Origin: a virus
Lineage: Duplodnaviria; Caudoviricetes
Strand: one strand, 5' to 3'
Length of the DNA: 64,000 bases
IMG/VR virus record: IMGVR_UViG_3300037308_000558
Coordinates: 2,089-66,088 of that record
Part shown: positions 25,646-64,000 of the stretch, one piece after another
How the letters are laid out: each line of letters begins with the position of its first letter
How positions within the stretch are numbered: the stretch's first letter is position 1
Made by a program: the position numbers and the translations under genes
The notes under the pieces: model-generated
What the model was told of the DNA's origin: nothing
The model's input: the letters and a program-made list of their open reading frames with translations, nothing else
Database searches by the model: none

Positions 25646-26575
25646 GTGGAGAAGCTGAGCGGCTTGGTCCTGGACGTCTACGACGATCCCAGCGGTGAAG
25701 TTCTTCGAGCCATCTTCCCTCGCTACGAGCAGGTACCCGAGCTCATCAAGAGTGCGCACGTCGTCACGCCGGATGAGCGCGCGCAGCTGCCGGACGACTT
25801 GTTCGCGCTCGTGCTGGAGGACGGCCCGGTGGAGCTCAGGAAGTACGCCTGCATCGACGCGGGCAATACGGCGCTCGCCGTCGAGTACTTCATGCAGCTC
25901 CGGCACAAGCTCCCCGAAGAGGCGCAGAAGGTGGCCGCGGCGAACTTGGAAGTTGCGTGCGGCTGGTACGACATCGACCCGCCCGAAGAGCTTCAGAAGG
26001 TAGCGAAGGGCATCGTCAAGAAGGTTGTCGGAGCGGTCAAGAGCTACGGCCGCGCCCTCAGCGGTAGCGGGGTGCGCAAGGCGGAGGCGGCCAGCCAGAG
26101 CGCCCTGGAGCGAGCGGAGCGTCGAGAAGATCTGGCTAATGCACTCTGGGAGCACGGCGCGCCCAAGCATCTCAGGGAGAAGGCAAATGCCAGCGCGGAC
26201 AAAGCGGTGAAAGCGCTAGGGCGTTACAACAAGATCGAGCATGAAGCACGTAGAGGAACGACCCAAGCGCGTGCGGCTACAGCAGCTGTAGGAGCCGTTG
26301 GGCTGGGCGCTGCTGCGGGTCACCACGAGCTGAAGAAGTGGAAGAAACAAGAGGATTCGCCCAAGGACGAGGGTGAGGCCAAAGAAGCGGGCCTCCTGTC
26401 GTGGGGTGCCAAGAAGGCCGTACAAAATCCCCTCGGTACCGCCATGACGGCCATGACAGTGCCGGGACAGATCAAGGGCATCGGGCAGACGGCCAAGGCG
26501 CGCGGCGAAGAGGCCAAGGCCTCCGGGGCTATCATCAACCCCAACGTGCTGAAGGCCACTCCGGTTCCGCAGTGA
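25646..26575 (+). CDS. K-x-A motif head-associated protein (309 aa)
   Basis: GTG start with AGGAGG SD; IKSAH, QKVAA, QKVAK, AKEAG; hydrophobic AAVGAVGLGAAAG segment. Confidence 0.7.
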   Translation: MEKLSGLVLDVYDDPSGEVLRAIFPRYEQVPELIKSAHVVTPDERAQLPDDLFALVLEDGPVELRKYACIDAGNTALAVEYFMQLRHKLPEEAQKVAAANLEVACGWYDIDPPEELQKVAKGIVKKVVGAVKSYGRALSGSGVRKAEAASQSALERAERREDLANALWEHGAPKHLREKANASADKAVKALGRYNKIEHEARRGTTQARAATAAVGAVGLGAAAGHHELKKWKKQEDSPKDEGEAKEAGLLSWGAKKAVQNPLGTAMTAMTVPGQIKGIGQTAKARGEEAKASGAIINPNVLKATPVPQ

Positions 26576-26589
26576 CCAGCGAGGATGCG

Positions 26590-27606
26590 ATGAGCCATCA
26601 AGTCGTGACGAAGCAGCAGGCGTGGCGGGATGCAGAGGGCTGGAAGACCAAGGAGTCCGAGCTCGCCAACACCTACGACATGCCGCAGAGCCCCTCACCC
26701 AGCGAGAAGAACATGACGAAGAAGCCCTTGTCCGTCATCAACAAGACGGCATCGGTTGCCGCCGAAGAAGATGAGCTGCTCAAGGTTGCCTTCGAGCAGA
26801 CGACGGCGCCTGAAGTCAACACCATGGTCGAGGGCGAGAATCCGAAGGCGGAGCCCCAGACCTCGCTCAAGCCTCGGGTGGATGTCTCCGGCAAGGAGGC
26901 ACCCAAGACGGTGACGGTGAAGAAGGCGAGCTACTACGCCATGCCGCACCGCGAGCTCTACCCGCTCGACAGCGTCGCGCAAGTGGAGAAGGCCGCCAGC
27001 TACTTCGACGAGTACGGCGTGCACATGACGCCGGAGATGCGCCACGAGTACTGCCAGAACATGGTGAAGCGCGCGCATGTTCTGGGCATCCGCGTGAGCA
27101 CCCTCGCCGAGCGCTACGGCTCCGAGACGTACGCTCCCCCGGAGCAGATCAAGATTGCGCTGGACGCGCGACGCAGCATCCTCAAGGATGAGTCCGACGT
27201 GGCGCTGCTGGACAAGGTTGCCAGCGCTCGCCCGTTCGTACAGCCCGAGGAGTTCGCTGTGCTTCTCAGCGAGTTCGACAAGCAGGCGTGCATCGACGAG
27301 TTCTGGGGCGGGGATGTCCCCGACCCCTACTTCTCCACCTTCGGCAAGACGGCTGCCGAGGTGAGCAAGACCGACCCAGAGGAATCCATTCTCGTCGGCA
27401 ACGAGTACACGACGGAGCGCAAGCTCGTCGAGCTCGCCAAGCACAAGCACGAGATGGTCTGCGAGAAGTTCGGCAAGGACTTCGCCAAGGAGTTCAAGAA
27501 CGACCCCAAGTCCATCTTCGATTCCATGCCGCGTGACCAGAAGCTCGTGCTGATGCGCATGGCCAACGCCAGCGACTCCACCACCTTCGGCGCGTCAACG
27601 TCGTGA
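26590..27606 (+). CDS. K-x-A motif head-associated protein (338 aa; ATG 26590)
   Basis: NKTAS, LKVAF, KKAS, EKAAS, DKVAS, DKQAC, GKTAA. Confidence 0.7.
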   Translation: MSHQVVTKQQAWRDAEGWKTKESELANTYDMPQSPSPSEKNMTKKPLSVINKTASVAAEEDELLKVAFEQTTAPEVNTMVEGENPKAEPQTSLKPRVDVSGKEAPKTVTVKKASYYAMPHRELYPLDSVAQVEKAASYFDEYGVHMTPEMRHEYCQNMVKRAHVLGIRVSTLAERYGSETYAPPEQIKIALDARRSILKDESDVALLDKVASARPFVQPEEFAVLLSEFDKQACIDEFWGGDVPDPYFSTFGKTAAEVSKTDPEESILVGNEYTTERKLVELAKHKHEMVCEKFGKDFAKEFKNDPKSIFDSMPRDQKLVLMRMANASDSTTFGASTS

Positions 27607-28421
27607 ACGAAGAGATCCAGCGAAGGTTCCGCGACGCCGTCCGTCAGCTCGGCCTGACGAAGGAGTCGGAGGCGATCATCCCATCGTCCTTGTCGAACGT
27701 GGACGACGAGGCGCAAGAGCAGACCGAGACGGCGCAGGGAGCCGCGGCAACGAAGAGCTCGGTGAAGCCCGAGGCGCCTGCTACCAAACTCGCGCTCATC
27801 AACATCTTCCAGCATCCCGACGCACACCCATACGTCTTGGACCTGCTCCTGCTTCGGAAGTACGGCCCGGACTGGATGGAGTGGGAGCCGGAGACGGTGC
27901 GCCTGCACATCGAGCACGACTTCCCCACGAAGGGCGTGAGCGACTTGGCCATGTCCAAGCTCAACGCCATGAAGACGCTGCACTACGTGGGGATGTACTG
28001 GACGAACTGGGAGGTCTTTCTCGCTTGCACGATGCCGCTGAACAACTTGTTCCCCGACTTCGTGCACATGCAGGTGCCCACCGTTGCGCAGTGTGCGATC
28101 TCCGTTGAGACGGCCAACCGCGTGCGCGATGACGTTCAGTGGAGCGATGAGCTCAAGGCCTACCTTGCCACGGTGTGCAAGTTCGACGGCATCTTCTGTC
28201 CACCGGAGCCCTTGGACTTTGTGACGGTGGACGCCTCCGAATACATTGTGGACTGCGAGGAAGTCCGCAAGCTCTGGCCCGATGTGCGACGTACGGGTGT
28301 GGCCCCGCAAGCGCCCGGCGTCACGAACGAACAACTCCGGCGCATGCTGATCGTGCACCAGGCTCTTCTGGGGAACCGCGACCACCTGCGCCAACAGCTC
28401 ACGGCGTTGCTCTATGTCTAG
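27603..28421 (+). CDS. hypothetical protein (272 aa)
   Basis: GTGA-coupled, GC3-rich ORF. Confidence 0.7.
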   Translation: MNEEIQRRFRDAVRQLGLTKESEAIIPSSLSNVDDEAQEQTETAQGAAATKSSVKPEAPATKLALINIFQHPDAHPYVLDLLLLRKYGPDWMEWEPETVRLHIEHDFPTKGVSDLAMSKLNAMKTLHYVGMYWTNWEVFLACTMPLNNLFPDFVHMQVPTVAQCAISVETANRVRDDVQWSDELKAYLATVCKFDGIFCPPEPLDFVTVDASEYIVDCEEVRKLWPDVRRTGVAPQAPGVTNEQLRRMLIVHQALLGNRDHLRQQLTALLYV

Positions 28422-29583
28422 CTTCCCCCCAGAGATGCTGCTGGCGCTTCAGGATGAGCTGGAGAAGGGCGCAGCGATTCCAGGCATGCAGGCGGCCCGG
28501 AATCTCCTCTCTCGGCAGGGCTCCGCCATCGGTGCTGGCGCGGGTCTTGGGGCCGCCGTGGGTGGCCTGGGAGGCCTCGGCGTGGGCGGCGTGCGGGGCT
28601 ACCGGGAAGCGCGCGAGCAGGGCGCGAGCCGCGGGCAGGCAGCGCTCATGGGGCTTGGCAGAGGGGCGATGGGGGTAGGACGCGGCGCTACCGTCGGGGC
28701 TCTGGCGGGCGCCGGCGCGGGTGCCCTTTCGGGCCAGCGGGGTGTGGAGCTGGCTCGGGAGCTGTCTGGGAAGGAGGGCCTGCACGCCAGCCTGGCCCGC
28801 TCAGGCCAGCGTCAGCTCCACTCCCTGACGGGGTGGACTCCGGAGGCGGGCCTCGAATCTGTTCGTGGTGGTGCCTGGGGCGCCAAGCAGCGTGCGGCGA
28901 AGGCGTTGCAGAAGTGGGAGTCGGCGTCAGGTGCTACGGGCAAGGACCTCGCTTCTGGCAAAGTACGCGGTCTCACGAAAGCACCCACCCCGGGAGCCGC
29001 CGAGGGTGTGGCGCATGACGTACTCGACCCCAAGGCGCTGAAGGCACGCTCTGCTGCTCGGAAGGAGTACGAGTTGGCGCTGCAGCATCAAGGTGCGGTC
29101 GAGAAGTCCGTGGAACACGGCATGACCAATCTGCCGGGGATGTACCAGGCCCTCAAGGGCCCCAACCGCATGGAAGCCCTCAAGGCCGGCGTGGGCGCTG
29201 GGTGGCATGGAGACACCGCGGCCATGAAGGCCCTCAACGTGGGTCTCCCGCTGGGAATGGTGGGCTTGGCTGCGGCCACGTCGCCCAAGGAAGAACGCGG
29301 ACAGGCCGTGGGGCGCGAAGCGGGCATGGCCGCCGCGGGGATGCTCTCGCCCTTCACGGTCATGCCGTTCGTCGGAGGCCAGGTCCTAGCCAGGGGCGCA
29401 CAGGCAGCCGGTAAGACCGTCGGGAAGGGCATCGACAAGCTGCGCAACCGGCATGCGGGCCTGCCCAGCGTGGCGCAGGTTCCCGGCACCGAGGGTGGAG
29501 ACGGGGGCAACCCGCCCTTCCCCATCGAGCGCAACTACTCGAACTCGGCCTTGGGTAGGCCGCCAGAGGGCATGGGCGTATGA
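28414..29583 (+). CDS. glycine-zipper protein, candidate internal/ejection protein (389 aa)
   Basis: N-terminal QDELEKGAA; GxxxG repeats IGAGAGLGAAVGGLGGLGVGG and GATVGALAGAGAG. Confidence 0.65.
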   Translation: MSSFPPEMLLALQDELEKGAAIPGMQAARNLLSRQGSAIGAGAGLGAAVGGLGGLGVGGVRGYREAREQGASRGQAALMGLGRGAMGVGRGATVGALAGAGAGALSGQRGVELARELSGKEGLHASLARSGQRQLHSLTGWTPEAGLESVRGGAWGAKQRAAKALQKWESASGATGKDLASGKVRGLTKAPTPGAAEGVAHDVLDPKALKARSAARKEYELALQHQGAVEKSVEHGMTNLPGMYQALKGPNRMEALKAGVGAGWHGDTAAMKALNVGLPLGMVGLAAATSPKEERGQAVGREAGMAAAGMLSPFTVMPFVGGQVLARGAQAAGKTVGKGIDKLRNRHAGLPSVAQVPGTEGGDGGNPPFPIERNYSNSALGRPPEGMGV

Positions 29584-36295: not shown

Positions 36296-39200
36296 ATGGC
36301 GCACCTTGATCACAAAGAAGCGTTCAACGAGTTCCGTGAGCGAGTCCTTGAAGGGATCAAGACGCACTTCCCCGTACAGGGCAGAACGCACACGCTGGAG
36401 CTCGACGGCCTGGAGGTGAAGGACGAGGGTCTTCATGCCGACGACATCCGCGCGCAGCACCAGGCCAAGGTGTCCGGTGAGAGCTGGAGCGCGCCGGTAT
36501 GGGGCAACATGGTCCTTCGGGACAACGCCACGGGCAAGGTCACCGAGCGGAAGAAGGTCCGTTTGGCCGAGCTGCCGATGACCACGCGCCGGTACAGCTA
36601 CATCGTGGATGGTAGCGAGTACCAAGTCGACAATCAGTGGCAGCTGAAGCCGGGCGTCTACACCCGCCGGCGCCAGTCGGGCGAGCTCGAAACGCGCTTC
36701 AACGTGCCGAACAAGCGTCCCTTCGATGTCGTCTTCTACCCCGAGAAGAAGGCGTTCTACATCGACCGCGGAAGTTCGAAGGCCATTCCCGTCTACCCCA
36801 TCATGAAGGCGCTCGGCGTGGATGACGACACGCTGAAGCAGAGCTGGGGCAAGGAGGTCTTCGAGGCAAGCAAGGCTGCGCGTGGTACAGCCAACACCCT
36901 CGCGAAGTTCTACAAGGTGGACAAGGGGGAGGCCCCGAAGAGTCAGGCCGACGCGGAGAAGTACCTCATCGACACCCTCCGCGATTCCAAGCTACGTCCG
37001 GAAGCCACCAAGGTCACGCTCGGGAAGCCCTTCACCGGCATCGATGGTGAGGTCCTCACGCTCGCCACGGCGAAGATGTTGAAGGTGCACCAGGGAGCAC
37101 CCGAGGACGACCGTGACAGCTTGGTGTTCAAGGACCTGCGTGGGTTGGGAGACTTCGCACACGACAAGCTGACGGACAGCAGCACGAAGAGCGCCATCAA
37201 GAACAAGATCATTCGTCAGCTGAACACGGGCAAGGGCATCCGCCAGGCGGTGAAGTTCGGGACGTTCAACATCCCCATTCGGGAGACGTTCACGAAGAAC
37301 TCCGCAGCGCGCACCGCCGACCAGATCAACCCCGTCGAGATGGTGGCGAGCTCGATGCAGACGACGCTCATGGGGCCTGGCGGCATCCAGAGCGCGCACG
37401 TGAACCTCGATGAAGCGAAGCTCGTGAACCCGTCGCACCTCGGCTTCCTCGATCCCCTGCACACACCCGAGAACGACAAGACGGGCGTCATCCTGCACCT
37501 GCCCGTGAGCGTGGAGAAGGTTGGCAAGGATCCGAAGATCCCCGTGCACAACCTGAAGACCAACAAGACGGACTGGGTCACGCCGCAGCAGTTCATGTCC
37601 TCGTCGGTTGTGCTGCCTGACCAAGTGCGTTGGGATGGTAACAAGCCCACGCCCATCTCCAAGAACGTGAAGATGGCGCTGCCTGGGAACGCGCTGGCCG
37701 AGGGGAAGTTCAGCGATGCCCAGTATGTGATGAAGCACCCGTCGCAAATGCTGAGCATCACGACGAACCTTGTGCCCTTCGTGAACAGCAACTCCGGCGG
37801 TCGTGCTAGCTACGCCACGCACCACATCGAGCAGGCCATTTCGCTCAAGCACAGGGAAGAGCCTTTGGTGCAGGTGGGCACGGGGTCGAGTGGGTGGAAG
37901 ACCTTCGAGGATCTCGTCGGCGGCATCTCCGGTCACGCGGCGCCCGTGAGTGGGAAAGTCGTTGCCGTGAAGAAGGATGCCGTGCACGTCGAGGGTGCGG
38001 ATGGAAAGGTGCGGGAGGTACAGCTCTACAACAACTTCCCCCTGAACGATCCCAAGGCTGTTCTGCACTCCGAGCCCGTGGTGAAGGTAGGCGACTCGGT
38101 GAAGAGCGGGCAGCTCGTGGCCGACACGAACTTCACGAAGGGCGGGAAGCTTGCGCTCGGCACGAACCTGCGCGTCGCCTACCTACCCTACAAGGGCTAC
38201 AACTTCGATGACGGCGTGGTCATCAGCCAAAGTGCCGCCAACAAGCTGGCGAGCGTGCACCTCTACAAGCCCTCGACGCGGCTCACTCCAGACACCATCA
38301 CCCGCGCGGATGTCTTCAAGGACCAGCACCCCGAAGCATTCACGAAGGACCAGTTCAGCATCCTCAACGACGAGGGCCTTGTACGCGTTGGTCAGGTCGT
38401 GAAGCCTGGGGATCCACTCGTCCTCGCCACGCGCCCGTACAACCTCCGAGACCGCTCCGGCGCCGCGGCCATTCGTAGGAGCCTGTCCGGGGCGCACACC
38501 GATACGTCGCTGCGATGGGATGCGGACTACCCGGGCGAGGTCGTTGGCGTGCACAAGAACAAGGACGGCACCGTCGCCGTGCACGTACGAACGACGGAGC
38601 CCATGCAGGTCGGCGACAAGGTCAGCGGTCGGCACGGCAACAAGGGCATCGTCACGCAGGTCCTTCCGGACCATGAGATGCCGCACACCGCGGACGGCAA
38701 GCACATCGAGGTGGCGCTGAATCCTGCAGGGGTTCCCGGCCGCATCAACGTGGGGCAGGTACTGGAAACGGTGGCGGGTAAGATTGCTCAGAAGACGGGC
38801 AAGCCCTACATCGTAGAGAACTTCATGCACGGACCGGACAACATCGGCCGCATGAAGAAGGAGCTCAAGGAGCACGGCCTCACCGACACGGAGGAGCTCC
38901 ACGACCCCACCACCGGTGTGAAGCTGGGAAAGGCTCTAGTCGGTCCTCAGTACATGCTCAAGCTGATGCACCAGATTGACAAGAAGGACTCTGCACGTTC
39001 GGGCATGGATCTGCGCGGTACGGCTCCGGAGGGCTACGACCTGAACCTCATGCCCGTCGGTGGTGGCCACTCGGGTGCTCAGTCCATCGGCAACCTCGGC
39101 ATGTACACGATGCTTGCGCATGGGGCGAAGGCCAACATCCGCGAGATGCAGACGTGGAAGAGTGAGGGCCCCGATGCCGCTCCTGACGGGAAGCGGTGGC

Positions 39201-44612: not shown

Positions 44613-45239
44613 ATGACGATTTCTCCTAACCCTCCAGTCTCCCAGACTCTGGGCGACTTCAACATAGGGCTAGCCGCGGCCATCGGGTTGTTGAACCCAC
44701 TCTCTGCGCAGCTGGACCTTCTGCTGTCCTTGGGCCTCGGGCCGCTCATGGCAGACCTGTCCGTGCAGCTCAACGTGTCGCTCGCCATGCAGGCCACGCT
44801 CAGCCTGCAGATCAGCGACCCCACCGTGAGCTTGCAACTAGCCATCTCGGCGCTGGCGCAGCTACAAGCAGCGCTGTCGGCTGCTCTGAGCTTGCCCACC
44901 ATCAGCGTGAGCATCAGCGCGGAGCTCTCGGCATCTGTCGCGCTGTCCGCGGCTTTGGCCCTGAAGCTTGGTGGGTTGCAGCTGCTCATCCAAGCCGCGC
45001 TCCAGATCAAGATTGCTGCCATGAAGTTCGCTGCGGACTTCGCGTTGAGCTTGTCGCTACCCGGCTTTTCGGGGTTCACGTTCCAGGGGGAGCCCCTCAG
45101 TACTACGGGTGGGCAGATCAACGCGCTGTTCAGTGCAGGATGGGCAGGCTTCGACACCGACCCCAACGTCTGGGGCATCGTGTTGATGGTGAAGGACGCT
45201 GCCCTATTCACGTCCATGTCTGCGATAATCACGGTCTGA
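44613..45239 (+). CDS. hydrophobic L/A/S-rich protein (208 aa)
   Basis: Almost uncharged helical sequence in the baseplate context. Confidence 0.65.
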   Translation: MTISPNPPVSQTLGDFNIGLAAAIGLLNPLSAQLDLLLSLGLGPLMADLSVQLNVSLAMQATLSLQISDPTVSLQLAISALAQLQAALSAALSLPTISVSISAELSASVALSAALALKLGGLQLLIQAALQIKIAAMKFAADFALSLSLPGFSGFTFQGEPLSTTGGQINALFSAGWAGFDTDPNVWGIVLMVKDAALFTSMSAIITV

Positions 45240-49200: not shown

Positions 49201-49201
49201 C

Positions 49202-51776: not shown

Positions 51777-53084
51777 ATGCACGACCTACCGGCCCAAACC
51801 TTGCTCCAGCAGCTCCATGCCCACCCCATCTCGGGTGAAGAACTGGAGGTGATGGGCAAGAAGGCGGCGTCGCGGTACTTGTGCGGGGATTGCTGCACGC
51901 TCAATGACGCCGTCGTCGAGACGGTGAAGCAGGCGGGCCTTTCACCCGAGCAGGTCAAGCGCGTCATCGAGTTCGCCAACACGAACGCGTACATCGAGCG
52001 CTTCAACAAGCTCGGGAGCGACCACAAGTACGTGGAGTTCGATGGAGGCCCGGCGGATCCGTCGGTCATCCTGAAGGACCTGAATGACGGCGGCGGAGGG
52101 ACGGTGTTCGACCGCGGCCTGGCGGACTACAGCCACATGCCGCTGGAGAAGAGCTCGTCGGACTTGCTCGCGCAGAACCGGTCCCGGTTGGGTCTGGAGA
52201 AGACCGCGTCCGTGTCTTCGAGCCCCGCCGAGACAGCTTTCGAGCAGATGTTCCAGTCCGAGGACAAGCCCCTGCCCTACGCAGAGCCCTTCCAGGACAT
52301 CATCGAGATGCGGGAGAAGCTGGCGGACAACCGGCAGCACCTCGCTTCCGAAGTGAGCGCCCTCGAAGTCGACTACCTCGACGTGGGTGATCGGCTCTAC
52401 CACTTGGTGAAGCAGGCTGCTCTGGAGGGCACCCCGCTCGGGCACATCGTGCAGGCGTGGAGTGAGGTAGTCCCCGGTCCCTCCTTCGTGAAGGTGGCCT
52501 TCGAGCTCGTGGGGCCTCGACTCGTGGAGGAGGGGGTCGTGGGCTACGACCAGATGGGCTCCTCGCTCACGAAGACAGCCGGCGCTGGCGCTGTGGTCGA
52601 CACGGGCCATCCACTCGTGGAGACCTTCTCGCACTTCTGCGACACGCTGCTCAAGTTGGCGGCGACGAGAGAAGTGCTTGCGGAGGTGGCAGATGCGCAC
52701 GAGAAGGCGGAGTACTTCCTGACGCGCGGGCTCACCAAGGTAGCCGACTCGGGCTATGTAGAGGAGGCAGCGGGACTTGTCCCAAAAGCCTGGCGCGCGG
52801 CGAAGGGCATCTCGGCTAGCGTAGCCGACCCTGCGTCGCGCGTAGTTGGTGGTATCGGCGGCGTTCTCTTCGGGCCCAACGTGGGGGCGAAGGCGCAGGA
52901 CATCACACGCGCAGTGGTGAGCCATGCTCCAGAGGCGGCGGCGGTTCTGGGGGCGAAGGAGCTCTACGACCGCGTGCGCTACACGCCTGCCTTCCAGGCG
53001 GCGAAGCACTACGCTTGGTCGCACGTTCCCTACACGCAAGAGAACCTCATTCGGCAGTACGACCTGCAGTCGCGCTTCATGTGA
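51777..53084 (+). CDS. K-x-A motif head-associated protein (435 aa)
   Basis: 10 of 22 Lys are followed by x-Ala (counted by hand). Confidence 0.72.
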   Translation: MHDLPAQTLLQQLHAHPISGEELEVMGKKAASRYLCGDCCTLNDAVVETVKQAGLSPEQVKRVIEFANTNAYIERFNKLGSDHKYVEFDGGPADPSVILKDLNDGGGGTVFDRGLADYSHMPLEKSSSDLLAQNRSRLGLEKTASVSSSPAETAFEQMFQSEDKPLPYAEPFQDIIEMREKLADNRQHLASEVSALEVDYLDVGDRLYHLVKQAALEGTPLGHIVQAWSEVVPGPSFVKVAFELVGPRLVEEGVVGYDQMGSSLTKTAGAGAVVDTGHPLVETFSHFCDTLLKLAATREVLAEVADAHEKAEYFLTRGLTKVADSGYVEEAAGLVPKAWRAAKGISASVADPASRVVGGIGGVLFGPNVGAKAQDITRAVVSHAPEAAAVLGAKELYDRVRYTPAFQAAKHYAWSHVPYTQENLIRQYDLQSRFM

Positions 53085-53094: not shown

Positions 53095-53658
53095 ATGAAT
53101 CCCATCGACGACTACCTGGAAATGAAGAAGGAAGCCGGCTTCGGCGACATGCTGCGAGGAGCCTGGCAAGGCTTCTCCGGTGGAGTCAAGCCGGTGTTGC
53201 AGGAAGCGCAGCATGGTCTGTTCGGGTCGGTACTCGGTGCCGTGCCCCCCGGTAAGTTCGACGCGGTCTCCCGAGGCTTCGCGTTGGGGGAGAAGGCGCA
53301 GGTTCCCGCTTTGGCTGTTGGTGGCGCGCTCGCGCTCGCGGGAACGGTCATGGCCATCCGCAAGATCCATGGGGCCATGACCAAGCAGCGTGACTTCAAG
53401 CAGATGATGCAGCTCAACCCCCACCTTGCGGATGCGCAGGCGCAACGTCCGGAGATGTTCAATCAGGCGTACAGCTCTCTTCGCAAGATGAATCCGACTC
53501 TGACGGCAGATCCGCTCGTCGCCGGGGCGTACATGAACAAGATGATGGTGCTCAACCCCGAGCAGGCTGGGATGATCCTGGTCGATGCCGCAGGCGCCTC
53601 CGCCCCGAAGCAGCAGGGCCTCCGATTGCGGAAGTTCGGCCCTCTTGGGTTGGAGTGA
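53095..53658 (+). CDS. membrane-segment head-associated protein (187 aa)
   Basis: MKKEAG N-terminus; hydrophobic VPALAVGGALALAGTVMAI. Confidence 0.65.
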   Translation: MNPIDDYLEMKKEAGFGDMLRGAWQGFSGGVKPVLQEAQHGLFGSVLGAVPPGKFDAVSRGFALGEKAQVPALAVGGALALAGTVMAIRKIHGAMTKQRDFKQMMQLNPHLADAQAQRPEMFNQAYSSLRKMNPTLTADPLVAGAYMNKMMVLNPEQAGMILVDAAGASAPKQQGLRLRKFGPLGLE

Positions 53659-55376
53659 TGCTCAAGGTCAGCACCTTCCTGGCGGAAGGCGAGCTCGGGC
53701 CGTCCGTCGTTCCGCTGTTCGGTCCTTCCGACTCGACCTTCGAGAAGACGGCGTCGGTCGGCTTGTTGCCAGACGTCTTGGGATACATCAACGCCCTTCG
53801 TCCGCGCAACGACGCGCAGTACGTTCTGGTGAACGCTTTGGGCGCCGGCGAGTTCTACAGCTCGAACATCAACGCCGACCACTTCCCCGAGATCGCGCTC
53901 ATCCACAAGCCAGACAACTGGACCGGCAACCCCCTGCTCGACCGATCCATCGCCAAGGATTGGCCCTATGGGTTCCCCACGTTCTACGGAGCGCATCCCT
54001 TCGCGCACCACCGGAACAAGGACCCATCTCGTGCCTACGGCGAAGTGGAGCTCGCCGCGTGGAACGACAACATGAAGCGGGTCGAGCTCGTCACACGAGT
54101 CGACCTCGACAAGTGCATGCGCTTCGGCGGTACGGGCGTGTGGGACCGCCTTCGAGAAGGGCAGTTCCCTGATGTGTCCATGGGTTCCAAGGTGCCCTGG
54201 GACCTGTGCTCCATCTGCGGGGACATGCACCTCTACCAGAAGGCGCTGGCGACCTTCGATCCGAAGAAGCACAAGCACCCTGGCATCGCTGTCCTGGAGT
54301 TCCACAAGAAGCTCAAGGAGAAGGACGGCGTCGGCATCCGCGGCCTCAGCATCACTCGCAACGACTACTGCGAGCACATGCGCACGATGCCGAATCGGAT
54401 CTTGCACGATGGGCGCAAGGTCTTCGTCTACAACTACTTCCCGCGCTTCTTCGACATCAGCTTCGTGTTCATCGGCGCGGATCGCACGGCCAAGGTCATG
54501 GTGTTCATCACCCGCCATGGCCGGCAGACCGCCCCCTCGGCGCTCGTGGCCGAGCAGATGGGTATGCACGACGAGCCCATGAAGGCCGCCGAAGTGCAGA
54601 CCGAGCTCTTGAAGGTGGCGTTCAGCAAGGACGCCAAGGACAAGGGAGCGGAGATCGAGAAGGAAGTCGTCCCCAGCCAGTTCGCTGGAAAGGCTGTCCC
54701 ACTCCTGACCCGGCGGGAGCCCGACCTTCCTGAAGAGGCAATGAAGGCGTTGTGCTCCGTGCCCATGGACCGAGCCCTGGCCACGTTGACCGGATTGGGC
54801 ATGGTTCTTCGCCCCTCCGAGTTCCAGCGCCTGGCGCTCACGCATGCCGGCGGCGGCCCGCTGGCGGATGACTTCGAGCGTAGGAATGTGCTGTTTCCGA
54901 AGACAGAGGAAGAAGAAGCCGTGGACATGGCACCCTCGGGTTTCACGCCTCCGCTGGCCCGTCTTCTTCAGTCTGCAATGCCTATGCGCTCCGCCTTCGG
55001 CCCCATCATCGAACGGAGGGTCGTGGTCATCATGGCGGCCCCCGAAAGAAAACGGGACCTTGCCACTTCCCATCCTTCAGAGTTACTCCGTAAGATTGGT
55101 GCTGCATACAACGGCTACCGTCGTGGTGTGATGGACATCGTGGCAAACGCGCAAGACATGATGAACGGGGCTCTCGGGTCTCGGGATGAAGAACTGCGCA
55201 AGTTGTCCGAGGCCAGCGCGGGTGAGCTCTTCACCCCGCTTGCCTATCAGTACCTCGACAGTGCGTTTCGTGATGAAGTGCCCCCGCTTGCCGTTCAGAG
55301 CACGGAAGTGGTAAAAACTTCACAACGATTTCCGTTGCCGGCGTGGAGAGGGGACTCCCCTCAAGGAACACGTTGA
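53655..55376 (+). CDS. prohead maturation protease (HK97/assemblin-like, clan SH) with Zn-ribbon insert
   Basis: AHPFAHHRNK (His), YGEV, DVSMG (Ser), CSICG...CEH, FFDISFV..GAD..A; located upstream of scaffold-like, decoration and capsid genes. Confidence 0.78.
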   Translation: MMLKVSTFLAEGELGPSVVPLFGPSDSTFEKTASVGLLPDVLGYINALRPRNDAQYVLVNALGAGEFYSSNINADHFPEIALIHKPDNWTGNPLLDRSIAKDWPYGFPTFYGAHPFAHHRNKDPSRAYGEVELAAWNDNMKRVELVTRVDLDKCMRFGGTGVWDRLREGQFPDVSMGSKVPWDLCSICGDMHLYQKALATFDPKKHKHPGIAVLEFHKKLKEKDGVGIRGLSITRNDYCEHMRTMPNRILHDGRKVFVYNYFPRFFDISFVFIGADRTAKVMVFITRHGRQTAPSALVAEQMGMHDEPMKAAEVQTELLKVAFSKDAKDKGAEIEKEVVPSQFAGKAVPLLTRREPDLPEEAMKALCSVPMDRALATLTGLGMVLRPSEFQRLALTHAGGGPLADDFERRNVLFPKTEEEEAVDMAPSGFTPPLARLLQSAMPMRSAFGPIIERRVVVIMAAPERKRDLATSHPSELLRKIGAAYNGYRRGVMDIVANAQDMMNGALGSRDEELRKLSEASAGELFTPLAYQYLDSAFRDEVPPLAVQSTEVVKTSQRFPLPAWRGDSPQGTR

Positions 55377-55411: not shown

Positions 55412-56584
55412 ATGAGTGACATGAATCCGTACCTCGCCGCGATGTACAACACGAACGGTGCTGCAGAGCAGCTGACCGAGGACATGCAGAAGACCGCCAA
55501 CATGGAGCTCTTCTGCAAGCTCGCCGCCGACAACGGCCTCGACCTCTCCAACATGACCGACGACCAGATCGCGTCGGTCTACGCTCAGGTGTTCCCCGAG
55601 GACCTCGCCAAGGTGGCCGAGGAAGACGAGAAGAAGGAGGAGCACGAGGAGAAGGAGTCTCCGGAGAAGGAGAAGAAGGAGGAGCACGAAGCCGGCGAGT
55701 CGAAGGAAGACGAGGAGAAGGAAGAGGCCAAGAAGGCCGCCGCGGCCATGTACGTCCAGGAGAAGCAGGCCGCCGTCGAGAAGTGCGCCGAGGCGGACTG
55801 GATGGGGCGCATCATGGCCCACTCGTTCACGCAGGAGCGCGAGAACATCGAGCTCGGCAAGTACGCGCACATCATCGAGACTGCCCAGGCCGAGGGCATG
55901 ACCGACGAGCAGATCTTCGAGGCCGTGAAGGAGGCCGCCGGCACCGAGGTGATGACCCAGATCATGAAGCGAAAGGGCCCCGGTGTTGTCGAGCGCTTGA
56001 AGAACCTCGGTTCCTCCGTTGTCGAGAAGGGAAAGGACGTCGCGGGCGGCATCGCTGCCAAGCGTTCGCGCGCCATCGAGGAGGGTCGGGCGGCCGCCGG
56101 CGAGCTCGCAGGTCACAAGGGCGCACTCAAGGGCCTCTCCAGCACCGAGCGCGCGGCGTACAAGGCTGCTCCGAAGCGCGAGGGGCATTCGGTTGGCGCG
56201 CACCTGAAGGAGCTCAGCAGCATGAAGCTGAAGGGCCAGGCTGCCAAGTACGCGCCGCATGCTGCGGTGGGTGCGGCAGCGGTTGGCGCCGAGGAGGGTG
56301 TACGTCGCGGGCTCAAGAAGAAGGACGACGAGAAGGAAGCCAAGGCTTCGGCCGAGGCCTTCGAGGAGATCGCGGCGAACCACGCCATCAAGGTGGCAGA
56401 GGCCGCCGGCTACGACGTCGAGCAGGCGCACAGCCTGGTCAACGCGGTCTACACCCTCGGCCTCGCCGAGAGTGAGAAGATCGCTCACGTCCAGGACGTC
56501 GACACGGCGACCCACGTTCGTGGGTTGGAGTACCTGGAAGCGGCCGGCTACCCGGTCAACTGGGAAGAGATCTTCGGTAGCTGA
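55412..56584 (+). CDS. acidic scaffold-like head protein with many K-x-A sites (390 aa)
   Basis: QKTAN, CKLAA, AKVAE, EKQAA, EKCAE, GKYAH, VKEAA, IKVAE, EKIAH; K/E-rich tract. Confidence 0.65.
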   Translation: MSDMNPYLAAMYNTNGAAEQLTEDMQKTANMELFCKLAADNGLDLSNMTDDQIASVYAQVFPEDLAKVAEEDEKKEEHEEKESPEKEKKEEHEAGESKEDEEKEEAKKAAAAMYVQEKQAAVEKCAEADWMGRIMAHSFTQERENIELGKYAHIIETAQAEGMTDEQIFEAVKEAAGTEVMTQIMKRKGPGVVERLKNLGSSVVEKGKDVAGGIAAKRSRAIEEGRAAAGELAGHKGALKGLSSTERAAYKAAPKREGHSVGAHLKELSSMKLKGQAAKYAPHAAVGAAAVGAEEGVRRGLKKKDDEKEAKASAEAFEEIAANHAIKVAEAAGYDVEQAHSLVNAVYTLGLAESEKIAHVQDVDTATHVRGLEYLEAAGYPVNWEEIFGS

Positions 56585-56598: not shown

Positions 56599-58284
56599 GT
56601 GGTCGAGTGGCTCAAGCTAGCCAATCCGGACGACTCGGGTCAGCACGACCCGAATCAGGATACGGCCACCCTGTCTTCCGTCCCGCCGGTCTCCATCCAG
56701 AACAAGCCAGCCCCGGGCCACAAGGGTCCGAAAGGGATGGCGCCCCGAACAGCGTACACCCGTGTGAACACAGGCACGCCACCGACACCGGACGCGGGAT
56801 CAGAGTCCCAGAAGTCGGTCGCGCCGAGAGGCTTGGAGTTTCTGCCCGGTAGGGCGAAGACGGCGGCGTTCCAGGAGAAAGATTCCATGCAGACGATGAT
56901 GAAGCGACCTCAGCTCCAGGACCTTGTGAAGGAGGCGATGGAAGGCGCCGCGCGCAAGGTGGACATCAACTACGAGGCCGCTCGGCAACTTGCCAACCTG
57001 GGCGAGCCGGAGCGGACCAAGACGGCGGCGCCAGCGCTCACCGTCACCCCGAGCGAGTACATCGAGAAGCTCGCGGTGGCGTTGGACTACCTGGCCAAGG
57101 AAGCGGCCGAGGACAGCTCCAACGTGGGACCGGGCGTGGGCCCCGGTGCCCTCCCGGCCAGCGCGGCGACGTCCTCGGGGCAGGTGCTCGAAGCCGGCAA
57201 GAGCGGCCAGGGCACGCAGCAGCCGCCGAAGGACCCGCCGATGCAGTCGAGTGGCGTGGCGAAGGACGCTCCCACGGGCCTGCAGGACAACATGGAGATG
57301 ATGCACGGTGAGCAGCCCGTGGATCCCATGCACAACGAGAAGACCTCGTCGGCCCTGTTCCACAGGAACATGGCGCGCCTTGGGCTGGTCAAGGAAGCTC
57401 GGGGCCCCGCCCCACTGTCGGACCTCGACCCGCGGCAGTACGCAGGTAACGCCGACCTCATGTCGGCCATGGAGGCTGGTGGTGGCGTTGGCGGTGGTCT
57501 CGCCGGCGGTGGGATTGGCGGGCTGGGTGGCTATTCGGTGGGTAAGGATCTTGGTCACCCCATCCTTGGCGCCCTGGGTGGAGCGCTCATTGGTTCGATG
57601 ACTGGAGGCACCCTCGGTCGGGTGGCTGGTCGCACCATGGGCTCGCCTCTGGCGCTGGCGCAGCACATCAAGCACCGTCGAGCAGCTGAGATCGAGGATG
57701 CCGTCGCTGCGCACCAGGCCGAGATGGCCGCTGCACAGGACGCCGGTCCGAAGGTGGCTTCCATCCTCAACCGCAACCTCGTCCGCCTCGGGCTGGCCAA
57801 GGTCGCCGAGGATGGCGATGGCGAAGGTGGCGCGCCGAGCATCAGCGCCGGCGCCGCTCCCGCGCAGGGCGCGGCCGCTCCTCCGGGTGCAAGCCCGTCG
57901 GGCGAGCAGGTTCCCTCGGAGCCGAGCGACGTGAATGCTCAGAAGGCGCTCATCAGCTCCAACGAGGCGGCCATCAACTACACCAAGCAGCAGGCGAAGG
58001 CCGACCCGAAGCGTGACGCCGGTCACGTCTACGACGAGCCCGCGCTCTCTGCCGCGCACGACAGCGTGCTGCAGCAGGCTTTCGATGCCGCCTCCAAGGC
58101 TGGCGTCAAGATCTCGTCCGACCTGACCCGCGTCGCCGCGGCCCAGGCGCTTCTCCGCAAGTACGCCGAAGAGGCGAAGGAGAAGAAGGACGACAAGAAG
58201 GGCAAGGAGAAGGAGAGCCAGATGCCTGGTCTCTCCACGCCATCCGGCCAGAGCGGGTTCTCGGCGAGCAACCAGGGCATGTGA
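56599..58284 (+). CDS. low-complexity head-associated protein with a glycine-zipper insert (561 aa)
   Basis: LKLAN, AKTAA, TKTAA, AKEAA, VKEAR, PKVAS, AKVAE, RKYAE; GGGVGGGLAGGGIGGLGG zipper. Confidence 0.68.
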   Translation: MVEWLKLANPDDSGQHDPNQDTATLSSVPPVSIQNKPAPGHKGPKGMAPRTAYTRVNTGTPPTPDAGSESQKSVAPRGLEFLPGRAKTAAFQEKDSMQTMMKRPQLQDLVKEAMEGAARKVDINYEAARQLANLGEPERTKTAAPALTVTPSEYIEKLAVALDYLAKEAAEDSSNVGPGVGPGALPASAATSSGQVLEAGKSGQGTQQPPKDPPMQSSGVAKDAPTGLQDNMEMMHGEQPVDPMHNEKTSSALFHRNMARLGLVKEARGPAPLSDLDPRQYAGNADLMSAMEAGGGVGGGLAGGGIGGLGGYSVGKDLGHPILGALGGALIGSMTGGTLGRVAGRTMGSPLALAQHIKHRRAAEIEDAVAAHQAEMAAAQDAGPKVASILNRNLVRLGLAKVAEDGDGEGGAPSISAGAAPAQGAAAPPGASPSGEQVPSEPSDVNAQKALISSNEAAINYTKQQAKADPKRDAGHVYDEPALSAAHDSVLQQAFDAASKAGVKISSDLTRVAAAQALLRKYAEEAKEKKDDKKGKEKESQMPGLSTPSGQSGFSASNQGM

Positions 58285-58292
58285 GGAAGACC

Positions 58293-58667: not shown

Positions 58668-58705
58668 CCCGACGAGCAGAAGGACAACCAGGAGGATTCT
58701 GAGAC

Positions 58706-59227: not shown

Positions 59228-59273
59228 AGCACCGAGGCGGCAAAGGCCAACCAGGAAGAAGAGGAGAACAACG

Positions 59274-60401
59274 ATGAACGGCGTTTCGCCCCGAGTGCTC
59301 AATGACCTGTTCAACAGCAAGCTGAACACGTCGGATGGCAAGGAGAAGATTGCGCAGTACGCGGGTTCCTACATCCGCGACCGTCTGCGTGAGGTCTCCT
59401 TCGCCCGCAAGATCCTGCCCCCCGAGCAGGTGACGCGAACCGACTGCCAGCGCAGCGTGAACCACGACACCTTGGTCAAGATCGTCGAGATCGAGCCCAA
59501 GAGCCGTGCGATGGCCATGGTCTTCCGTGGTCAACCGACGGCGCGCTTCATCCGCGGCGACCGTGCCGAGGTGGCGTTCTTCACCATCAGCTCGGAGATC
59601 TTCCAGAAGACCGAGCAGGAGCTTCTCGCCTACGAGATGCCCATCACCAAGATCATCGAGGAGAACTCGGTGAAGGACATCCAGGAGATCGAGGACCGCG
59701 AGTTCTTGCTCCACGTCGAGGCGGCCGTTCAGGCTCTCCAGAAGGAGGCCAACGGTGGTGTCGCCAAGGCTCTGAACTACAGCACCGTGTTCGCAGGCAC
59801 CACGGTCGAGTTCTCCATCCGCAAGGGTGAGCTCGCCCGCATCGCCGGCGCCAACGATGCCACGGTTCGGCCCCTGCAGCGCACCGACATCGTGCAGCTC
59901 TTCAAGCTGCTCGACGGCAACCGCCTGCGCGCCGAGCGCTTGCTGATGACCGAGGTCGACTACGACGACATCCTTCAGTGGACCGTCGAGGACAACGGCA
60001 GCAAGCTCCAGTCGGAGACCACGGTGGACGGCTACAAGTACAACACCCTCCTCGGGCGTGCGTACATCCGGACCATCAAGACCGACATCCTTCGTCCGGG
60101 CAACATCTACGTGTTCACCCGGCCGGAGTTCCTCGGGCGCTTCTACGTCCTGAACAACACCAAGTTCTACATCGACAAGATCGCGAACTTGATCACGTTC
60201 CAGGCGTGGGAGGACATCGCGATGAGCCTCGTGAACATCGCGTCCGTGCGGAAGCTGGAGCTCTACTCCGGCGACGCCAACCCGACGACCAACGCCAACG
60301 CGCTCCTGTCGTACTTCGTCCCGAAGGCGGAGGACGACCTCGGTGCGGTGAACAACCGCGTCGAGAGCGGGCTGAAGTTCCCGCAGGTCGTGGCGTTCTA
60401 G
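59274..60401 (+). CDS. major capsid protein (HK97 fold inferred; 375 aa)
   Basis: Strong GAGGAG SD, very high codon bias, RE.SFARKIL motif, downstream terminator, canonical protease-scaffold-decoration-MCP gene order. Confidence 0.78.
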   Translation: MNGVSPRVLNDLFNSKLNTSDGKEKIAQYAGSYIRDRLREVSFARKILPPEQVTRTDCQRSVNHDTLVKIVEIEPKSRAMAMVFRGQPTARFIRGDRAEVAFFTISSEIFQKTEQELLAYEMPITKIIEENSVKDIQEIEDREFLLHVEAAVQALQKEANGGVAKALNYSTVFAGTTVEFSIRKGELARIAGANDATVRPLQRTDIVQLFKLLDGNRLRAERLLMTEVDYDDILQWTVEDNGSKLQSETTVDGYKYNTLLGRAYIRTIKTDILRPGNIYVFTRPEFLGRFYVLNNTKFYIDKIANLITFQAWEDIAMSLVNIASVRKLELYSGDANPTTNANALLSYFVPKAEDDLGAVNNRVESGLKFPQVVAF

Positions 60402-60429
60402 TCGAAGTCCTGATCCTGGTTGGCCCGGG

Positions 60430-60465
60430 GAAAGGCGCCGGCCCCCGGTCGGCGCCTTTCTTCGT
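60430..60465 (+). terminator. hairpin terminator after the MCP gene
   Basis: GAAAGGCGCCG-9 nt-CGGCGCCTTTC followed by TTCGT. Confidence 0.65.
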
Positions 60466-60494
60466 CAGTCCGCACCAGCACCCTTGGAGGGACC

Positions 60495-61040: not shown

Positions 61041-61046
61041 GGCGCC

Positions 61047-61547: not shown

Positions 61548-61555
61548 TCCTAACT

Positions 61556-61564
61556 TGCTATATT
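61556..61564 (+). promoter_or_regulatory. extended -10 promoter TG-C-TATATT, probable leaderless transcript
   Basis: Hexamer ends 6 nt before ATG 61571; no SD. Confidence 0.62.
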
Positions 61565-61570
61565 GGCCTC

Positions 61571-62239: not shown

Positions 62240-62246
62240 GGACTCC

Positions 62247-62696
62247 ATGGCAGCACTGTACGCGCGCAAGTTCGGTACTCTGGAGGCGGTCAACACCTTC
62301 CTTCGGGGTGGCATCAAGGGTGGGGCGGAGCTCAGCCCTACGGTCTTTGGACTGCACGGCAAGACGCTGGTGTTCAACGCGCCGTCTGGCACGGTGACCT
62401 TCGCCGATGCCACGGGCGCCGGGCTCACGCTCGACGCCATCGCGACCCAGATCAAGGCAGCAATCGCCACTCTGGCCGTGCGCTTCGACAGCAGGCACGT
62501 CGTGCTGGAGTACGCCACGCCCGGCACGGCTGTGAACCTGGACAACACGGGCACGGCCAACGCAGCCTTCGGCTTCGACACGGCCGCCGACACCGTGGGC
62601 AAGGTCTTCGCGCCCTACACGGGCTCTGCGCCGAGGCTGCTCTCGCTGCAGCCGTGGGGACAGATGGACGGCGTAGTGACCGTCACGGAGGAGTGA
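62247..62696 (+). CDS. hypothetical virion protein (149 aa)
   Basis: GAGGA SD; T/A/G-rich beta composition. Confidence 0.62.
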   Translation: MAALYARKFGTLEAVNTFLRGGIKGGAELSPTVFGLHGKTLVFNAPSGTVTFADATGAGLTLDAIATQIKAAIATLAVRFDSRHVVLEYATPGTAVNLDNTGTANAAFGFDTAADTVGKVFAPYTGSAPRLLSLQPWGQMDGVVTVTEE

Positions 62697-62697
62697 C

Positions 62698-64000
62698 ATG
62701 GACAAGTGGGCGCATGAAGAACTGGGCATCCCGCTGAACGAAGCTGCCAGCTTCTTCATGCGGATCCGCACTCCCCGCATCGACGCCGTCAAGACGGCCG
62801 AGGCCCTCAAGACCGCGGCCGAGAAGGCGGAGAAGACCGACGACGAGCTCAAGGAAGAGGGGCGCAAGCGCGGCGTGGCCAACCTCGCCGCCGAGGCGGA
62901 GCGTGAGAAGGGCCGTCGGGGAGCACGCGTCGGCAAGAGCGTGGGTTCCATCGCGGGCGGCGTCGGTGGTGCGGCTCTGGGCCGGAAGTACATCGGCGGC
63001 CCGGCGGGCACCATCGCGGGTCTCGCTGCCGGCATGGTTGCTGGTGGCCGAGCGGGCGAGGAGCTCGGGACCGAGCACGACATCAAGAAGAACAGCCCGA
63101 AGTTCACGCCCATCAGCAAGCTCGGCAGTTTGGCTGAGAAGACGGCTGCGATGCGCATGCAGCTCGCGCTCCTCAAGCTCGCCGACGACGGCAGCATGAT
63201 GGCGCCGGCCGGGGAGCAGGACATGGGTGCCATGGCGCCCCCGCCGCCCCAGCAGGAGCTCGCGCCGCAGAACTACCTGCAGGCCGAGCTCATGGGTCAG
63301 CAGGCCCAGGAAGCGCAGGAGCAGCAGTTCTACCGCGACCAGTTGAAGAGCCAGCAACAGCAGACCGAGCAGCTCAACCAGCAGGTGCAGCAGATGCAGC
63401 AACAGCTGCAGCAGACCCAGCAGCAGGCGGACCAGGCTCAGCAGCAGATCAGCCAGGCGACCCAACAGGCGGTGGCTGCTCAGGATCAAGCGACGCAGCA
63501 GGCACAAGCCGCTGCCGAGGCGCGCATCTCTGCGCAGCGCATGCGAGCTCAGATCCTAGACCTCGTGTCGAAGGACCCGAGCATGTTCGCCCTGGAGCAG
63601 GGTCAGCCCGGTCCCGGGCAGGGTCAACCGGTGGACGCCAGCGGCCAGCCCATCCCCCCGGAGGCGCAGGCACCCGACGCGGGTAACGGGGGGCCGCCGC
63701 AAGAGGGGCCTGCCGCCGCTGCGCCGGCGCCACAGACGGCTCCTGGGGCCGCCCCGCCCGCCGGGGCACCGGACATGAACGCGCCTGCAGGGCCCCCTCC
63801 AGGGCCCAACCCAGCCGGGGCGGAAGGCACGACCGGGATGGGGAACATCGAGGGGTCTCCGACGAAGACCTCCGCGGATTGGTCCTTCTACGCGTTGCTG
63901 GCCGCGGGAGCGGGCCGCCGCCCTTTTGATGGTGCCCTCACTGGCCCGGCCGCCGGTGAGGGTAAGGTCGCGTCTGTGGCCCTGCCGGCTATCGGTGCCG
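62698..64000 (+). CDS. partial K-x-A / glycine-zipper / poly-Q protein running off the window (>434 aa), absent from the ORF track
   Basis: Open frame from ATG 62698: MDKWAHEELG...VKTAEALKTAAEK...GSIAGGVGGAALG...EKTAA...LKLAD, Q-rich coiled coil, GKVAS. Confidence 0.8.
   Translation, partial: MDKWAHEELGIPLNEAASFFMRIRTPRIDAVKTAEALKTAAEKAEKTDDELKEEGRKRGVANLAAEAEREKGRRGARVGKSVGSIAGGVGGAALGRKYIGGPAGTIAGLAAGMVAGGRAGEELGTEHDIKKNSPKFTPISKLGSLAEKTAAMRMQLALLKLADDGSMMAPAGEQDMGAMAPPPPQQELAPQNYLQAELMGQQAQEAQEQQFYRDQLKSQQQQTEQLNQQVQQMQQQLQQTQQQADQAQQQISQATQQAVAAQDQATQQAQAAAEARISAQRMRAQILDLVSKDPSMFALEQGQPGPGQGQPVDASGQPIPPEAQAPDAGNGGPPQEGPAAAAPAPQTAPGAAPPAGAPDMNAPAGPPPGPNPAGAEGTTGMGNIEGSPTKTSADWSFYALLAAGAGRRPFDGALTGPAAGEGKVASVALPAIGA

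Follow-up and report, generated by a model that had tools for sequence, protein, structure and literature searches.

In the stretch of DNA analyzed here, a 64-kb window of the 66-kb IMG/VR virus record IMGVR_UViG_3300037308_000558 (completeness estimate 35%), the genes for head proteins lie in two blocks on the plus strand. The main head block starts with the terminase gene (49202-51040) and continues with genes 51777, 53095, 53655, 55412, 56599, 58281, 58706, 59274, 60420, 61047, 62247, and 62698, each named after its first nucleotide. Among them, 53655-55376 encodes a predicted prohead protease of 573 amino acids (aa), and 59274-60401 encodes the major capsid protein (phrog_2522, E 3.4e-13). 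The second block, made up of 25646, 26593, 27603, and 28414, leads into the portal gene at 29580. Proteins of this head module carry an excess of the tripeptide Lys-x-Ala (K-x-A), and seven of them (25646, 28414, 51777, 53095, 55412, 56599, and 62698) also contain glycine zippers or other uncharged stretches rich in small residues.

An earlier note, made from the sequence alone, had put forward that these segments are bracketed by K-x-A sites, at which scaffold-like polyproteins are clipped to release a family of membrane-active peptides. Every string that it quoted is found in the translation of the open reading frame (ORF) to which it was assigned, and the proteins do belong to a head module, beside a protease having the fold of T4 gp21. 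The observation as a whole is partly confirmed: the strings, the excess of K-x-A, and the basic flanks of the segments stand, but the bracketing and most of the "membrane-like" hydrophobicity are not confirmed. The explanation that we favor, and hold to be probable, is a T4-like maturation programme of the prohead core, in which the gp21-fold protease would cut at hydrophobic-x-K-x-A, a new specificity.

Relatives of the capsid protein at 73-84% identity are encoded on ~294 viral contigs, the full-length ones being 185-195 kb long; the source phage is an uncultured phage of ~190 kb. Its cultured relatives are distant. They include Salmonella phage Arash (28% identity for the terminase and 34% for the RNA polymerase) and Vibrio phages D69, D181, and D148, which are the other nearest cultured phages. 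Pfam and PHROG scans of the seven segment-bearing proteins and of ten neighbors identified the capsid protein only, with otherwise very weak matches, and none of the seven is named by either database.

K-x-A sites and the predicted gp21-fold protease

Motif counts were compared with composition-preserving shuffles in a head set of 19 head-module proteins and in the other proteins of the window. K-x-A occurs 93 times in the head set against 48.5 expected, and 66 times in the other proteins against 58.7. The head set has 32 copies of K-[TV]-A against 5.3 expected (z 12.6; other proteins 4 against 7.5) and 50 copies of the extended form, hydrophobic-x-K-x-A, against 11.4 (z 11.7; other proteins 15 against 15.5). 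The controls A-x-K, R-x-A, K-x-L, and E-x-A are flat, and neither the T4 motif [LI]-x-E nor the phiKZ motif [SAG]-x-E is enriched here in the same shuffle test. To guard against a cherry-picked motif, all 400 X-x-Y pairs were scanned: K-x-A comes first in the head set (z 7.3; runner-up 3.4), and no pair stands out in the non-head proteins. Hence, K-x-A in head-module proteins is clearly a signal well above chance. Arash and Vibrio phage D69 likewise have an excess of the extended form in their head modules (38 copies against 5.9 expected in Arash and 36 against 6.6 in D69), the reverse control being flat in both.

The sites were aligned with 3-80 homologues from related contigs, the start codons of the homologues being picked by a simple rule. 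Many of them are conserved far above their flanks in these alignments. Conservation reaches 1.0 against 0.16 for the flanks at K401 of 56599 and 0.78 against 0.13 at K265 of the same protein, 0.87 against 0.12 at K142 of 51777, 0.98 against 0.33 at K310 of the protease, and 1.0 against 0.28 at K18 of 28414. In the capsid protein, the N-terminal site K25-A27 (59346-59354) is kept as K-x-A in 99% of 80 relatives, and the capsid proteins of Arash and D69 have K-E-A near the N-terminus, at about residue 27. At the K12 position of 53095, K-x-A is present in all 53 homologues, with the exact residues shifting. A clipping code, as had been proposed, would agree with a motif that is enriched only in head proteins, conserved above its flanks, and common to Arash and D69.

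The protease ORF is listed with a GTG start. Because an ATG follows right behind it and the homologues begin with M-[LIY]-K, the true start is probably 53658. The protein is predicted to comprise an N-terminal domain of the gp21 fold (aa 11-272, nt 53685-54470), a disordered linker (aa 273-337), and a C-terminal helical domain (aa 338-546). It was modeled with AlphaFold2 (AF2) on 37 homologues (pLDDT 74). The top three Foldseek matches of the model are chains of T4 gp21 (probability 0.93-0.96; best 5jbl, 0.96). When aa 5-273 were compared with 48,161 representative chains by VIA-align, 5jbl_A (gp21) again came first (Z 9.2), and the gp21 alignment has a root-mean-square deviation of 2.9 Å with 144/165 residues. 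The proteases of varicella-zoster virus (VZV), human cytomegalovirus (HCMV), and Kaposi's sarcoma-associated herpesvirus (KSHV) are among the next rows (Z 3.9-5.4), and gp21 is well clear of them. Herpesvirus assemblin is of the same fold class, the structural similarity being remote. Assemblin cleaves between Ala (P1) and Ser (P1'), and the predicted sites here, in which K-x-A precedes Ser or Ala, are similar. Finally, H118, H119, and S175 of the window protease are at least 90% conserved in the alignment of the 37 sequences and are candidates for its catalytic residues.

Two K-x-A sites lie in the protease itself. K31-A33 (53745-53753) is near the N-terminus and K310-A312 (54582-54590) is in the linker, where K310 and A312 are invariant in the 37 sequences and the flanks vary in length and sequence. 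By analogy, these sites fit self-processing, as in T4 gp21 and phiKZ gp175 (PMC9026906). Since the gp21-fold protease carries conserved K-x-A sites of its own, K-x-A is most likely the cleavage motif.

Two homologues of the protease deserve a mention. In L011:4905-6617, an insert that resembles an intein and contains a LAGLIDADG domain (Pfam LAGLIDADG_3, E 6.6e-4; Intein_splicing, E 0.013) splits the protease; the insert terminates with H-N-C directly ahead of the conserved K-V-P-F-D-T-C-S-I-C. In Bacillus phage G, gp19 (L139, 8920-9822), termed head maturation protease (PMC12484599), is a distant homologue (tblastn, E 2e-12) with G-L-V-K-T-A-A in its N-terminus. Hydrophobic-x-K-x-A is mildly enriched in gp15-gp28 of this phage (12 observed, 4.1 expected, z 4). 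Together, these two features suggest that the K-x-A rule may extend past the present clade; cleavage-site data were not found in the phage G papers.

Conserved and accessory segments

Judged from the alignments, the segments form two classes, a conserved one (28414, 53095, and 62698) and an accessory one (56599, 55412, 51777, and 25646).

In the conserved class, the portal-adjacent protein 28414 (28414..29583, 389 aa) begins with a leader that ends at K18-A20 (28465-28473). Behind it come two glycine zippers, both conserved, at aa 35-60 (28516-28593) and aa 91-108 (28684-28737), with more hydrophobic helices farther on (aa 273-326, 29230-29391). Every one of the 32 family members contains the segment (100%). 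Across 31 sequences with a mean identity of 34%, conservation is at least 90% at K18, at G40/46/50/54, and at G87/91/95/99. The AF2 model (pLDDT 78.7, pTM 0.65) is all-helical, with the zippers inside a hairpin (H25-68/H73-105, pLDDT 80-94). Toward the N-terminus, confidence drops only at residues 19-21, exactly where K18-A20 lies and the leader helix gives way to the body. For 28414, the prediction thus yields what the earlier note had set against its own proposal, invariant parts of folded domains, and the product that would be left after the leader, with its 369 aa, is not a peptide. Searches of PDB and viral libraries with the model by Foldseek gave no match below E 0.4, and the ESM Atlas returned only unnamed viral clusters with TM scores below 0.25. 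As for Arash, a counterpart upstream of the portal gene was looked for and none is there; gp199, at that place, is an unrelated beta-rich protein.

The small protein 53095 (53095..53658, 187 aa; alignment of 54 homologues) has a leader ending at K12-A14 (53128-53136), then an Ala/Gly-rich helix resembling a transmembrane (TM) one at aa 68-88 (53296-53358), and then a conserved C-terminal domain. The hydrophobic segment is present in 93% of the 54 homologues, and the proteins at the corresponding position in the cultured relatives, Arash Gp221 and D69 0269, share this layout. In both 28414 and 53095, the short leader ending in K-x-A is followed by a basic mature part, with a net charge of +17 and +7, respectively.

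The third member, 62698 (62698..63999), runs off the window after more than 434 aa. K32-A34 and K38-A40 (62791-62817) are its leader sites, and K148-A150 (63139-63147) is a further site. Between them, at aa 81-117 (62938-63048), lies a basic hairpin of glycine zippers, and downstream of K148-A150 a Gln-rich coiled coil and a Pro/Ala-rich region are found. Among 29 homologues, 97% have the zipper. As in 28414, its Gly positions are conserved at an overall identity of ~30-35%. Its PHROG matches, to hydrophobic parts of tape-measure and tail-lysin proteins, involve only the Gly-rich stretch (E ~1e-3). In the 845-aa homologue L006:12739-15276, the basic zipper fragment sits between K-S-A|S and K-K-A|S. 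This homologue also has an extra acidic or folded domain of ~270 aa between the leader, ending K-T-A, and the zipper fragment, an insertion that forms another variable slot flanked by K-x-A sites.

In the accessory class, the scaffold-like protein 56599 (56599..58284, 561 aa) has a conserved pair of sites, K265-A267 (57391-57399) and K401-A403 (57799-57807), and an extra site at K385-A387 (57751-57759). The pair belongs to two conserved copies of R-N-[ML]-x-R-L-G-L-x-K-x-A, which bound a slot containing a double glycine zipper (aa 293-340, 57475-57618; stretches 293-315 and 318-340). Among 59 homologues, the slot ranges from 10 to 658 aa (median 55). It holds a zipper segment in 10 of them, each with a slot of at least 61 aa, and is without one in the other 49; in the family survey, the segment is counted as present in 32% of homologues. 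The slot of one relative, L080, contains tandem zipper modules, each closed by P-K-x-A-S, the result of a recent tandem duplication. Proneness to insertions and deletions, which the earlier note had suggested as a check, is therefore borne out for the accessory class, as seen in 56599.

The other three accessory segments are weak or moderate. The acidic helical scaffold-like protein 55412 (55412..56584, 390 aa) has 15 K-x-A, for example K67-A69 (55610-55618), and a basic insert at about aa 176-310 with a weak Ala/Gly segment (aa 280-293, 56249-56290), which is present in 45% of 56 homologues. Protein 51777 (51777..53084, 435 aa) has ten K-x-A, such as K142-A144 (52200-52208), and a weak C-terminal segment that is not conserved (aa 356-371, 52842-52889; 26% of 54 homologues). 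In 25646 (25646..26575, 309 aa), the sites K95-A97 (25928-25936) and K118-A120 (25997-26005) are conserved. Its basic tail is poorly conserved and carries an Ala/Gly segment (aa 210-227, 26273-26326), found in 13% of 30 homologues, as well as the non-conserved site K246-A248 (26381-26389). In the window, 25646 and 26593-27606 are separate ORFs in different frames, with an overlap around 26401-26575. In L090/L091:1501-2874, their counterparts are joined as one ORF of 458 aa, in which a hydrophobic segment separates the two conserved parts.

The segments were scored as uncharged stretches of at least 14 residues. Stretches with at least three GxxxG are found in 28414, 51777 (356-371), 56599, and 62698 (81-95 and 98-117), that is, in head-module proteins only, with 3-9 GxxxG per stretch. 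None of the ~30 other proteins of the window has an uncharged stretch with at least three, and none exceeds one. The stretch of 53095 is Ala/Gly-rich, has 21 residues, and is the most hydrophobic of all segments; that of 25646 is moderate and that of 55412 weak. Summed over 19 residues on a biological hydrophobicity scale, the best values are 2.3 for 53095 (the lowest), 3.8 for 56599, and 4.2 for 28414, against 3.6 for a buried stretch of the terminase. To call the segments membrane-like goes rather far: on this scale, 53095 alone approaches TM hydrophobicity, and the others appear to be under the TM range, with values like those of buried stretches of soluble proteins.

Transmembrane glycine zippers are small-xxx-G-xxx-small helices in membranes. 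The segments of the window share GxxxG runs and basic flanks with the Pfam glycine-zipper domains (PF05433, PF13488, and PF13441) and with the Gly-rich stretches of tape-measure proteins. They score, however, far under the Pfam cut-offs, and the likeness may be compositional only. Indeed, the 56599 segment reaches 8.8 bits (E 2.1) with PF05433, "Glycine zipper 2TM," for which the cut-off is 24.2 bits. Over the glycine-zipper models it reaches 8-9 bits against cut-offs of 24-25, and the 28414 and 62698 segments have no match. The best relative, the cassette of L068, reaches 22.9 bits against the 24.2 of "Glycine zipper 2TM." When the zipper regions of 28414, 62698, 53095, and 56599 were compared with one another by hhalign, probabilities did not exceed 8%, so that the modules are not a demonstrable family by descent, and the earlier word "family" does not apply to them in that sense.

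The bracketing by K-x-A is no tighter than the density of the sites predicts. The distance from a segment to the upstream K-x-A in the window is 53 aa, against 83 aa on random re-placement (P 0.12), no closer than chance, and the same holds for the families of 56599, 62698, and 51777. In the families of 28414 and 53095, segments are nearer to K-x-A than expected by chance, each reflecting one conserved architecture. These two proteins have an N-terminal K-x-A only. Elsewhere, nearly any segment appears bracketed because K-x-A sites are dense in these proteins.

The basic character of the flanks is upheld. When the seven families were cut in silico at every K-x-A and the net charge of the fragments was computed, the segment-bearing fragments came out net basic in 7/7 families (+2.8 to +8.4 per 100 aa) and the remaining fragments neutral or acidic (+0.6 to -9.9 per 100 aa). 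The direction is uniform across families, although P values are inflated by kinship. Basic fragments opposed to an acidic rest mirror the situation in T4, where the acidic scaffold is chopped and lost and basic internal proteins stay with the DNA (PMC9026906).

Outside the K-x-A set, a 208-aa protein encoded at 44613-45239 (plus strand), next to the baseplate-like gene 42753-43982, consists almost entirely of uncharged Leu/Ser/Ala/Gln-rich stretches, five of them of 14-34 residues; it has no family match.

A probable prohead-core maturation and competing explanations

The prohead core of T4 comprises the gp21 protease, the scaffold protein gp22, gp67/gp68, and internal proteins (IPI-III and Alt) that bear capsid-targeting leaders (PMC9026906). 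There as here, the gene of a protease of this fold and the scaffold-like genes next to it precede the capsid gene. Both phages also have a three-residue code, fixed at its first and third residues, of which acidic scaffold proteins hold many copies and basic proteins and the capsid protein a single one close to the N-terminus. The code itself is different, Leu/Ile-x-Glu in T4 and Lys-x-Ala here; moreover, one scaffold-like protein here has a hypervariable slot between two sites, and cleavage here is a prediction. Glycine-zipper helices, borne here by the candidate retained products, are not known from T4 internal proteins.

By this model, a serine-type protease of the gp21 fold (53655-55376) would be built into the prohead alongside scaffold-like and internal proteins. 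It would cut its partners at hydrophobic-x-Lys-x-Ala, probably right after Ala and before Ser, Ala, or Gly. Acidic stretches dense in K-x-A (55412 and the larger part of 51777 and of 56599) would, like T4 gp22, be cut into small pieces that exit the capsid. Products that are long, net basic, and free of K-x-A would remain with the DNA as internal head proteins, and all glycine-zipper and small-residue helices would fall in those products. The zippers of 28414, 53095, and 62698 would then serve as tight helix-helix packing elements in folded or oligomeric helical proteins, and those of 56599 (less clearly those of 55412, 51777, and 25646) would be optional passengers in variable stretches. A literature search, which was not exhaustive, found no report of a Lys-x-Ala prohead-protease motif or of glycine zippers in phage internal proteins.

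Phages of the phiKZ kind offer a second comparison. A-x-E sites, N-terminal propeptides, and ejected internal proteins are described for them (PMC10052503). In phiKZ and SPN3US, gp175 and gp245 cut after A-x-E, internal "ejection" proteins are numerous, and a multisubunit RNA polymerase (RNAP) is packaged (PMC10052503, PMC5694885). The source phage likewise has a large genome of myovirus type, and its gp21-like protease is predicted to process many head proteins, mostly by removal of N-terminal propeptides, as well as itself. Its virion probably carries a multisubunit-type RNAP, to judge from mass spectrometry of Arash virions, in preparations of which the RNAP subunits are the most abundant proteins (PMC10585845), an abundance that suggests a packaged polymerase. 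In contrast to phiKZ, [SAG]-x-E is not enriched here, and the RNAP, encoded in the structural region (36296-42751, plus strand), is a single fused beta-beta' chain of 2151 aa; in Arash, beta and beta' are separate subunits, Gp206/Gp216 (PMC10585845). A K-x-A leader of the RNAP, K7-E-A9, was considered and set aside, as it is not conserved in relatives.

The Arash virion data also bear on the head proteins. Gp220-Gp225 were detected by mass spectrometry (PMC10585845). Judged by gene order, they correspond to 51777, 53095, the protease, and the scaffold-like proteins; Gp224, also among them, is a small, basic, Gly/Ala-rich protein.

Several points weigh against the maturation model. Cutting at K-x-A, although most likely, is deduced from enrichment, conservation, and placement of the motif in sequences. 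The protease assignment, for its part, depends on the predicted fold, the conserved His/Ser, and gene position: the window protease, its N-terminal 300 aa (E up to 10), and each of the 37 family members fail to match Pfam protease families, and neither the protease sequence nor its profile has a sequence match in the PDB. The homologues are interrelated, and since phylogeny was ignored, P values within families are inflated. Loose K-x-A within the first 45 residues is found in 11/19 head proteins and 10/30 others, which is not significant (P 0.14). Many K-x-A sit in predicted helices, and not all of them need be cut. Finally, replication enzymes are among the 116 proteins of the Arash list, which gives no peptide termini (PMC10585845). 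Being on such a list shows that a protein was in the preparation, and is weak evidence that it is packaged.

Among the alternatives, one that is close to the earlier note supposes that the zipper pieces are membrane-active, are ejected with the DNA, and oligomerize in the host envelope as all or part of a conduit for the genome and the virion RNAP. We regard it as rather unlikely. The conserved GxxxG periodicity of 28414 and 62698, basic flanks that look like membrane-anchoring segments, the near-TM stretch of 53095, and the abundance of RNAP in Arash preparations all speak for it, as do the weak PHROG matches of 62698 to tape-measure and tail-lysin parts and the L068 cassette, so close to the Pfam cut-off. 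There are also precedents for refolding or oligomerizing in a target envelope, in podovirus ejection proteins, which refold as envelope channels (PMC8954989), and in a type VI secretion system (T6SS) effector, Tde1, the translocation of which is reported to require a glycine zipper (PMC10240207). The likeness lies, however, in this general idea. Those cases are supported by experiment, the present one is predicted, and no sequence or fold similarity was found; Pfam, PHROG, ESM Atlas, and Foldseek searches gave no link to a known ejection-protein fold or family. Moreover, the zippers have the hydrophobicity of soluble buried stretches, those of 28414 are modeled within a soluble-looking helical bundle, the modules are not homologous to one another, and the RNAP has no conserved K-x-A leader. 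The segments are absent from most relatives for 56599, 51777, and 25646, and from just over half for 55412, so that in these four proteins they cannot be essential parts of a conduit.

This same variability lends weight to a second alternative, in our view likewise rather unlikely, in which the segments act during assembly only. The zipper and Ala/Gly stretches would pack or oligomerize core and scaffold proteins, or would be slippage-prone low-complexity filler, and would be degraded or expelled at maturation with no role in the next infection. The 56599 slot, of such varied length and without a zipper in 49/59 homologues, the recent tandem duplication in L080, and the poor conservation of the 51777, 55412, and 25646 segments are as expected from it, and so is the location of segments in scaffold-like, K-x-A-dense proteins between the protease and capsid genes. 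What it leaves unexplained is the conservation of Gly positions in 28414 and 62698 at such low overall identity. In addition, segment fragments consistently have a net positive charge and no K-x-A inside them, in contrast to the scaffold parts, which are acidic and would be cut many times, and Arash counterparts are detected in virions.

A more far-reaching possibility, which we consider doubtful, is that the paired conserved K-x-A sites of scaffold-like head proteins are a plug-in cargo loader. The scaffold would take any passenger placed between them (10-658 residues in relatives) along into the prohead, and the protease would then set it free. Basic zipper modules would be one such cargo, staying with the DNA, being injected, and oligomerizing in the inner membrane to aid the entry of the genome and the packaged RNAP.

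Finally, that K-x-A is an uncut docking or targeting motif (for example, for binding the capsid shell or the scaffold) or a quirk of helix composition is suggested by the many K-x-A that lie in helices with Leu, Gln, or Glu as the middle residue. We hold this to be unlikely. Reverse and neighbor motif controls are flat, and K-x-A falls in disordered linkers and between domains, where its flanks vary. The protease has the motif, as does the capsid protein close to its N-terminus, a placement like that of the T4 and phiKZ sites. K-x-A also co-occurs with a gp21-fold protease in Arash, D69, and perhaps phage G.

If cutting at K-x-A is true, it would provide a simple sequence key from which the mature head proteome could be foretold. 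Internal proteins, and those that are ejected, would become predictable for a very large and almost unannotated group of ~190-kb environmental phages, as well as for Arash and Vibrio phage D69. It would also mean that gp21-fold proteases have evolved a specificity for basic and small residues, compared with the acidic one in T4 and phiKZ. The variable slot between two conserved sites suggests, in addition, a natural way of loading arbitrary passengers into the capsid, which bears on phage counter-defence and on engineered protein delivery by phages to laboratory hosts.

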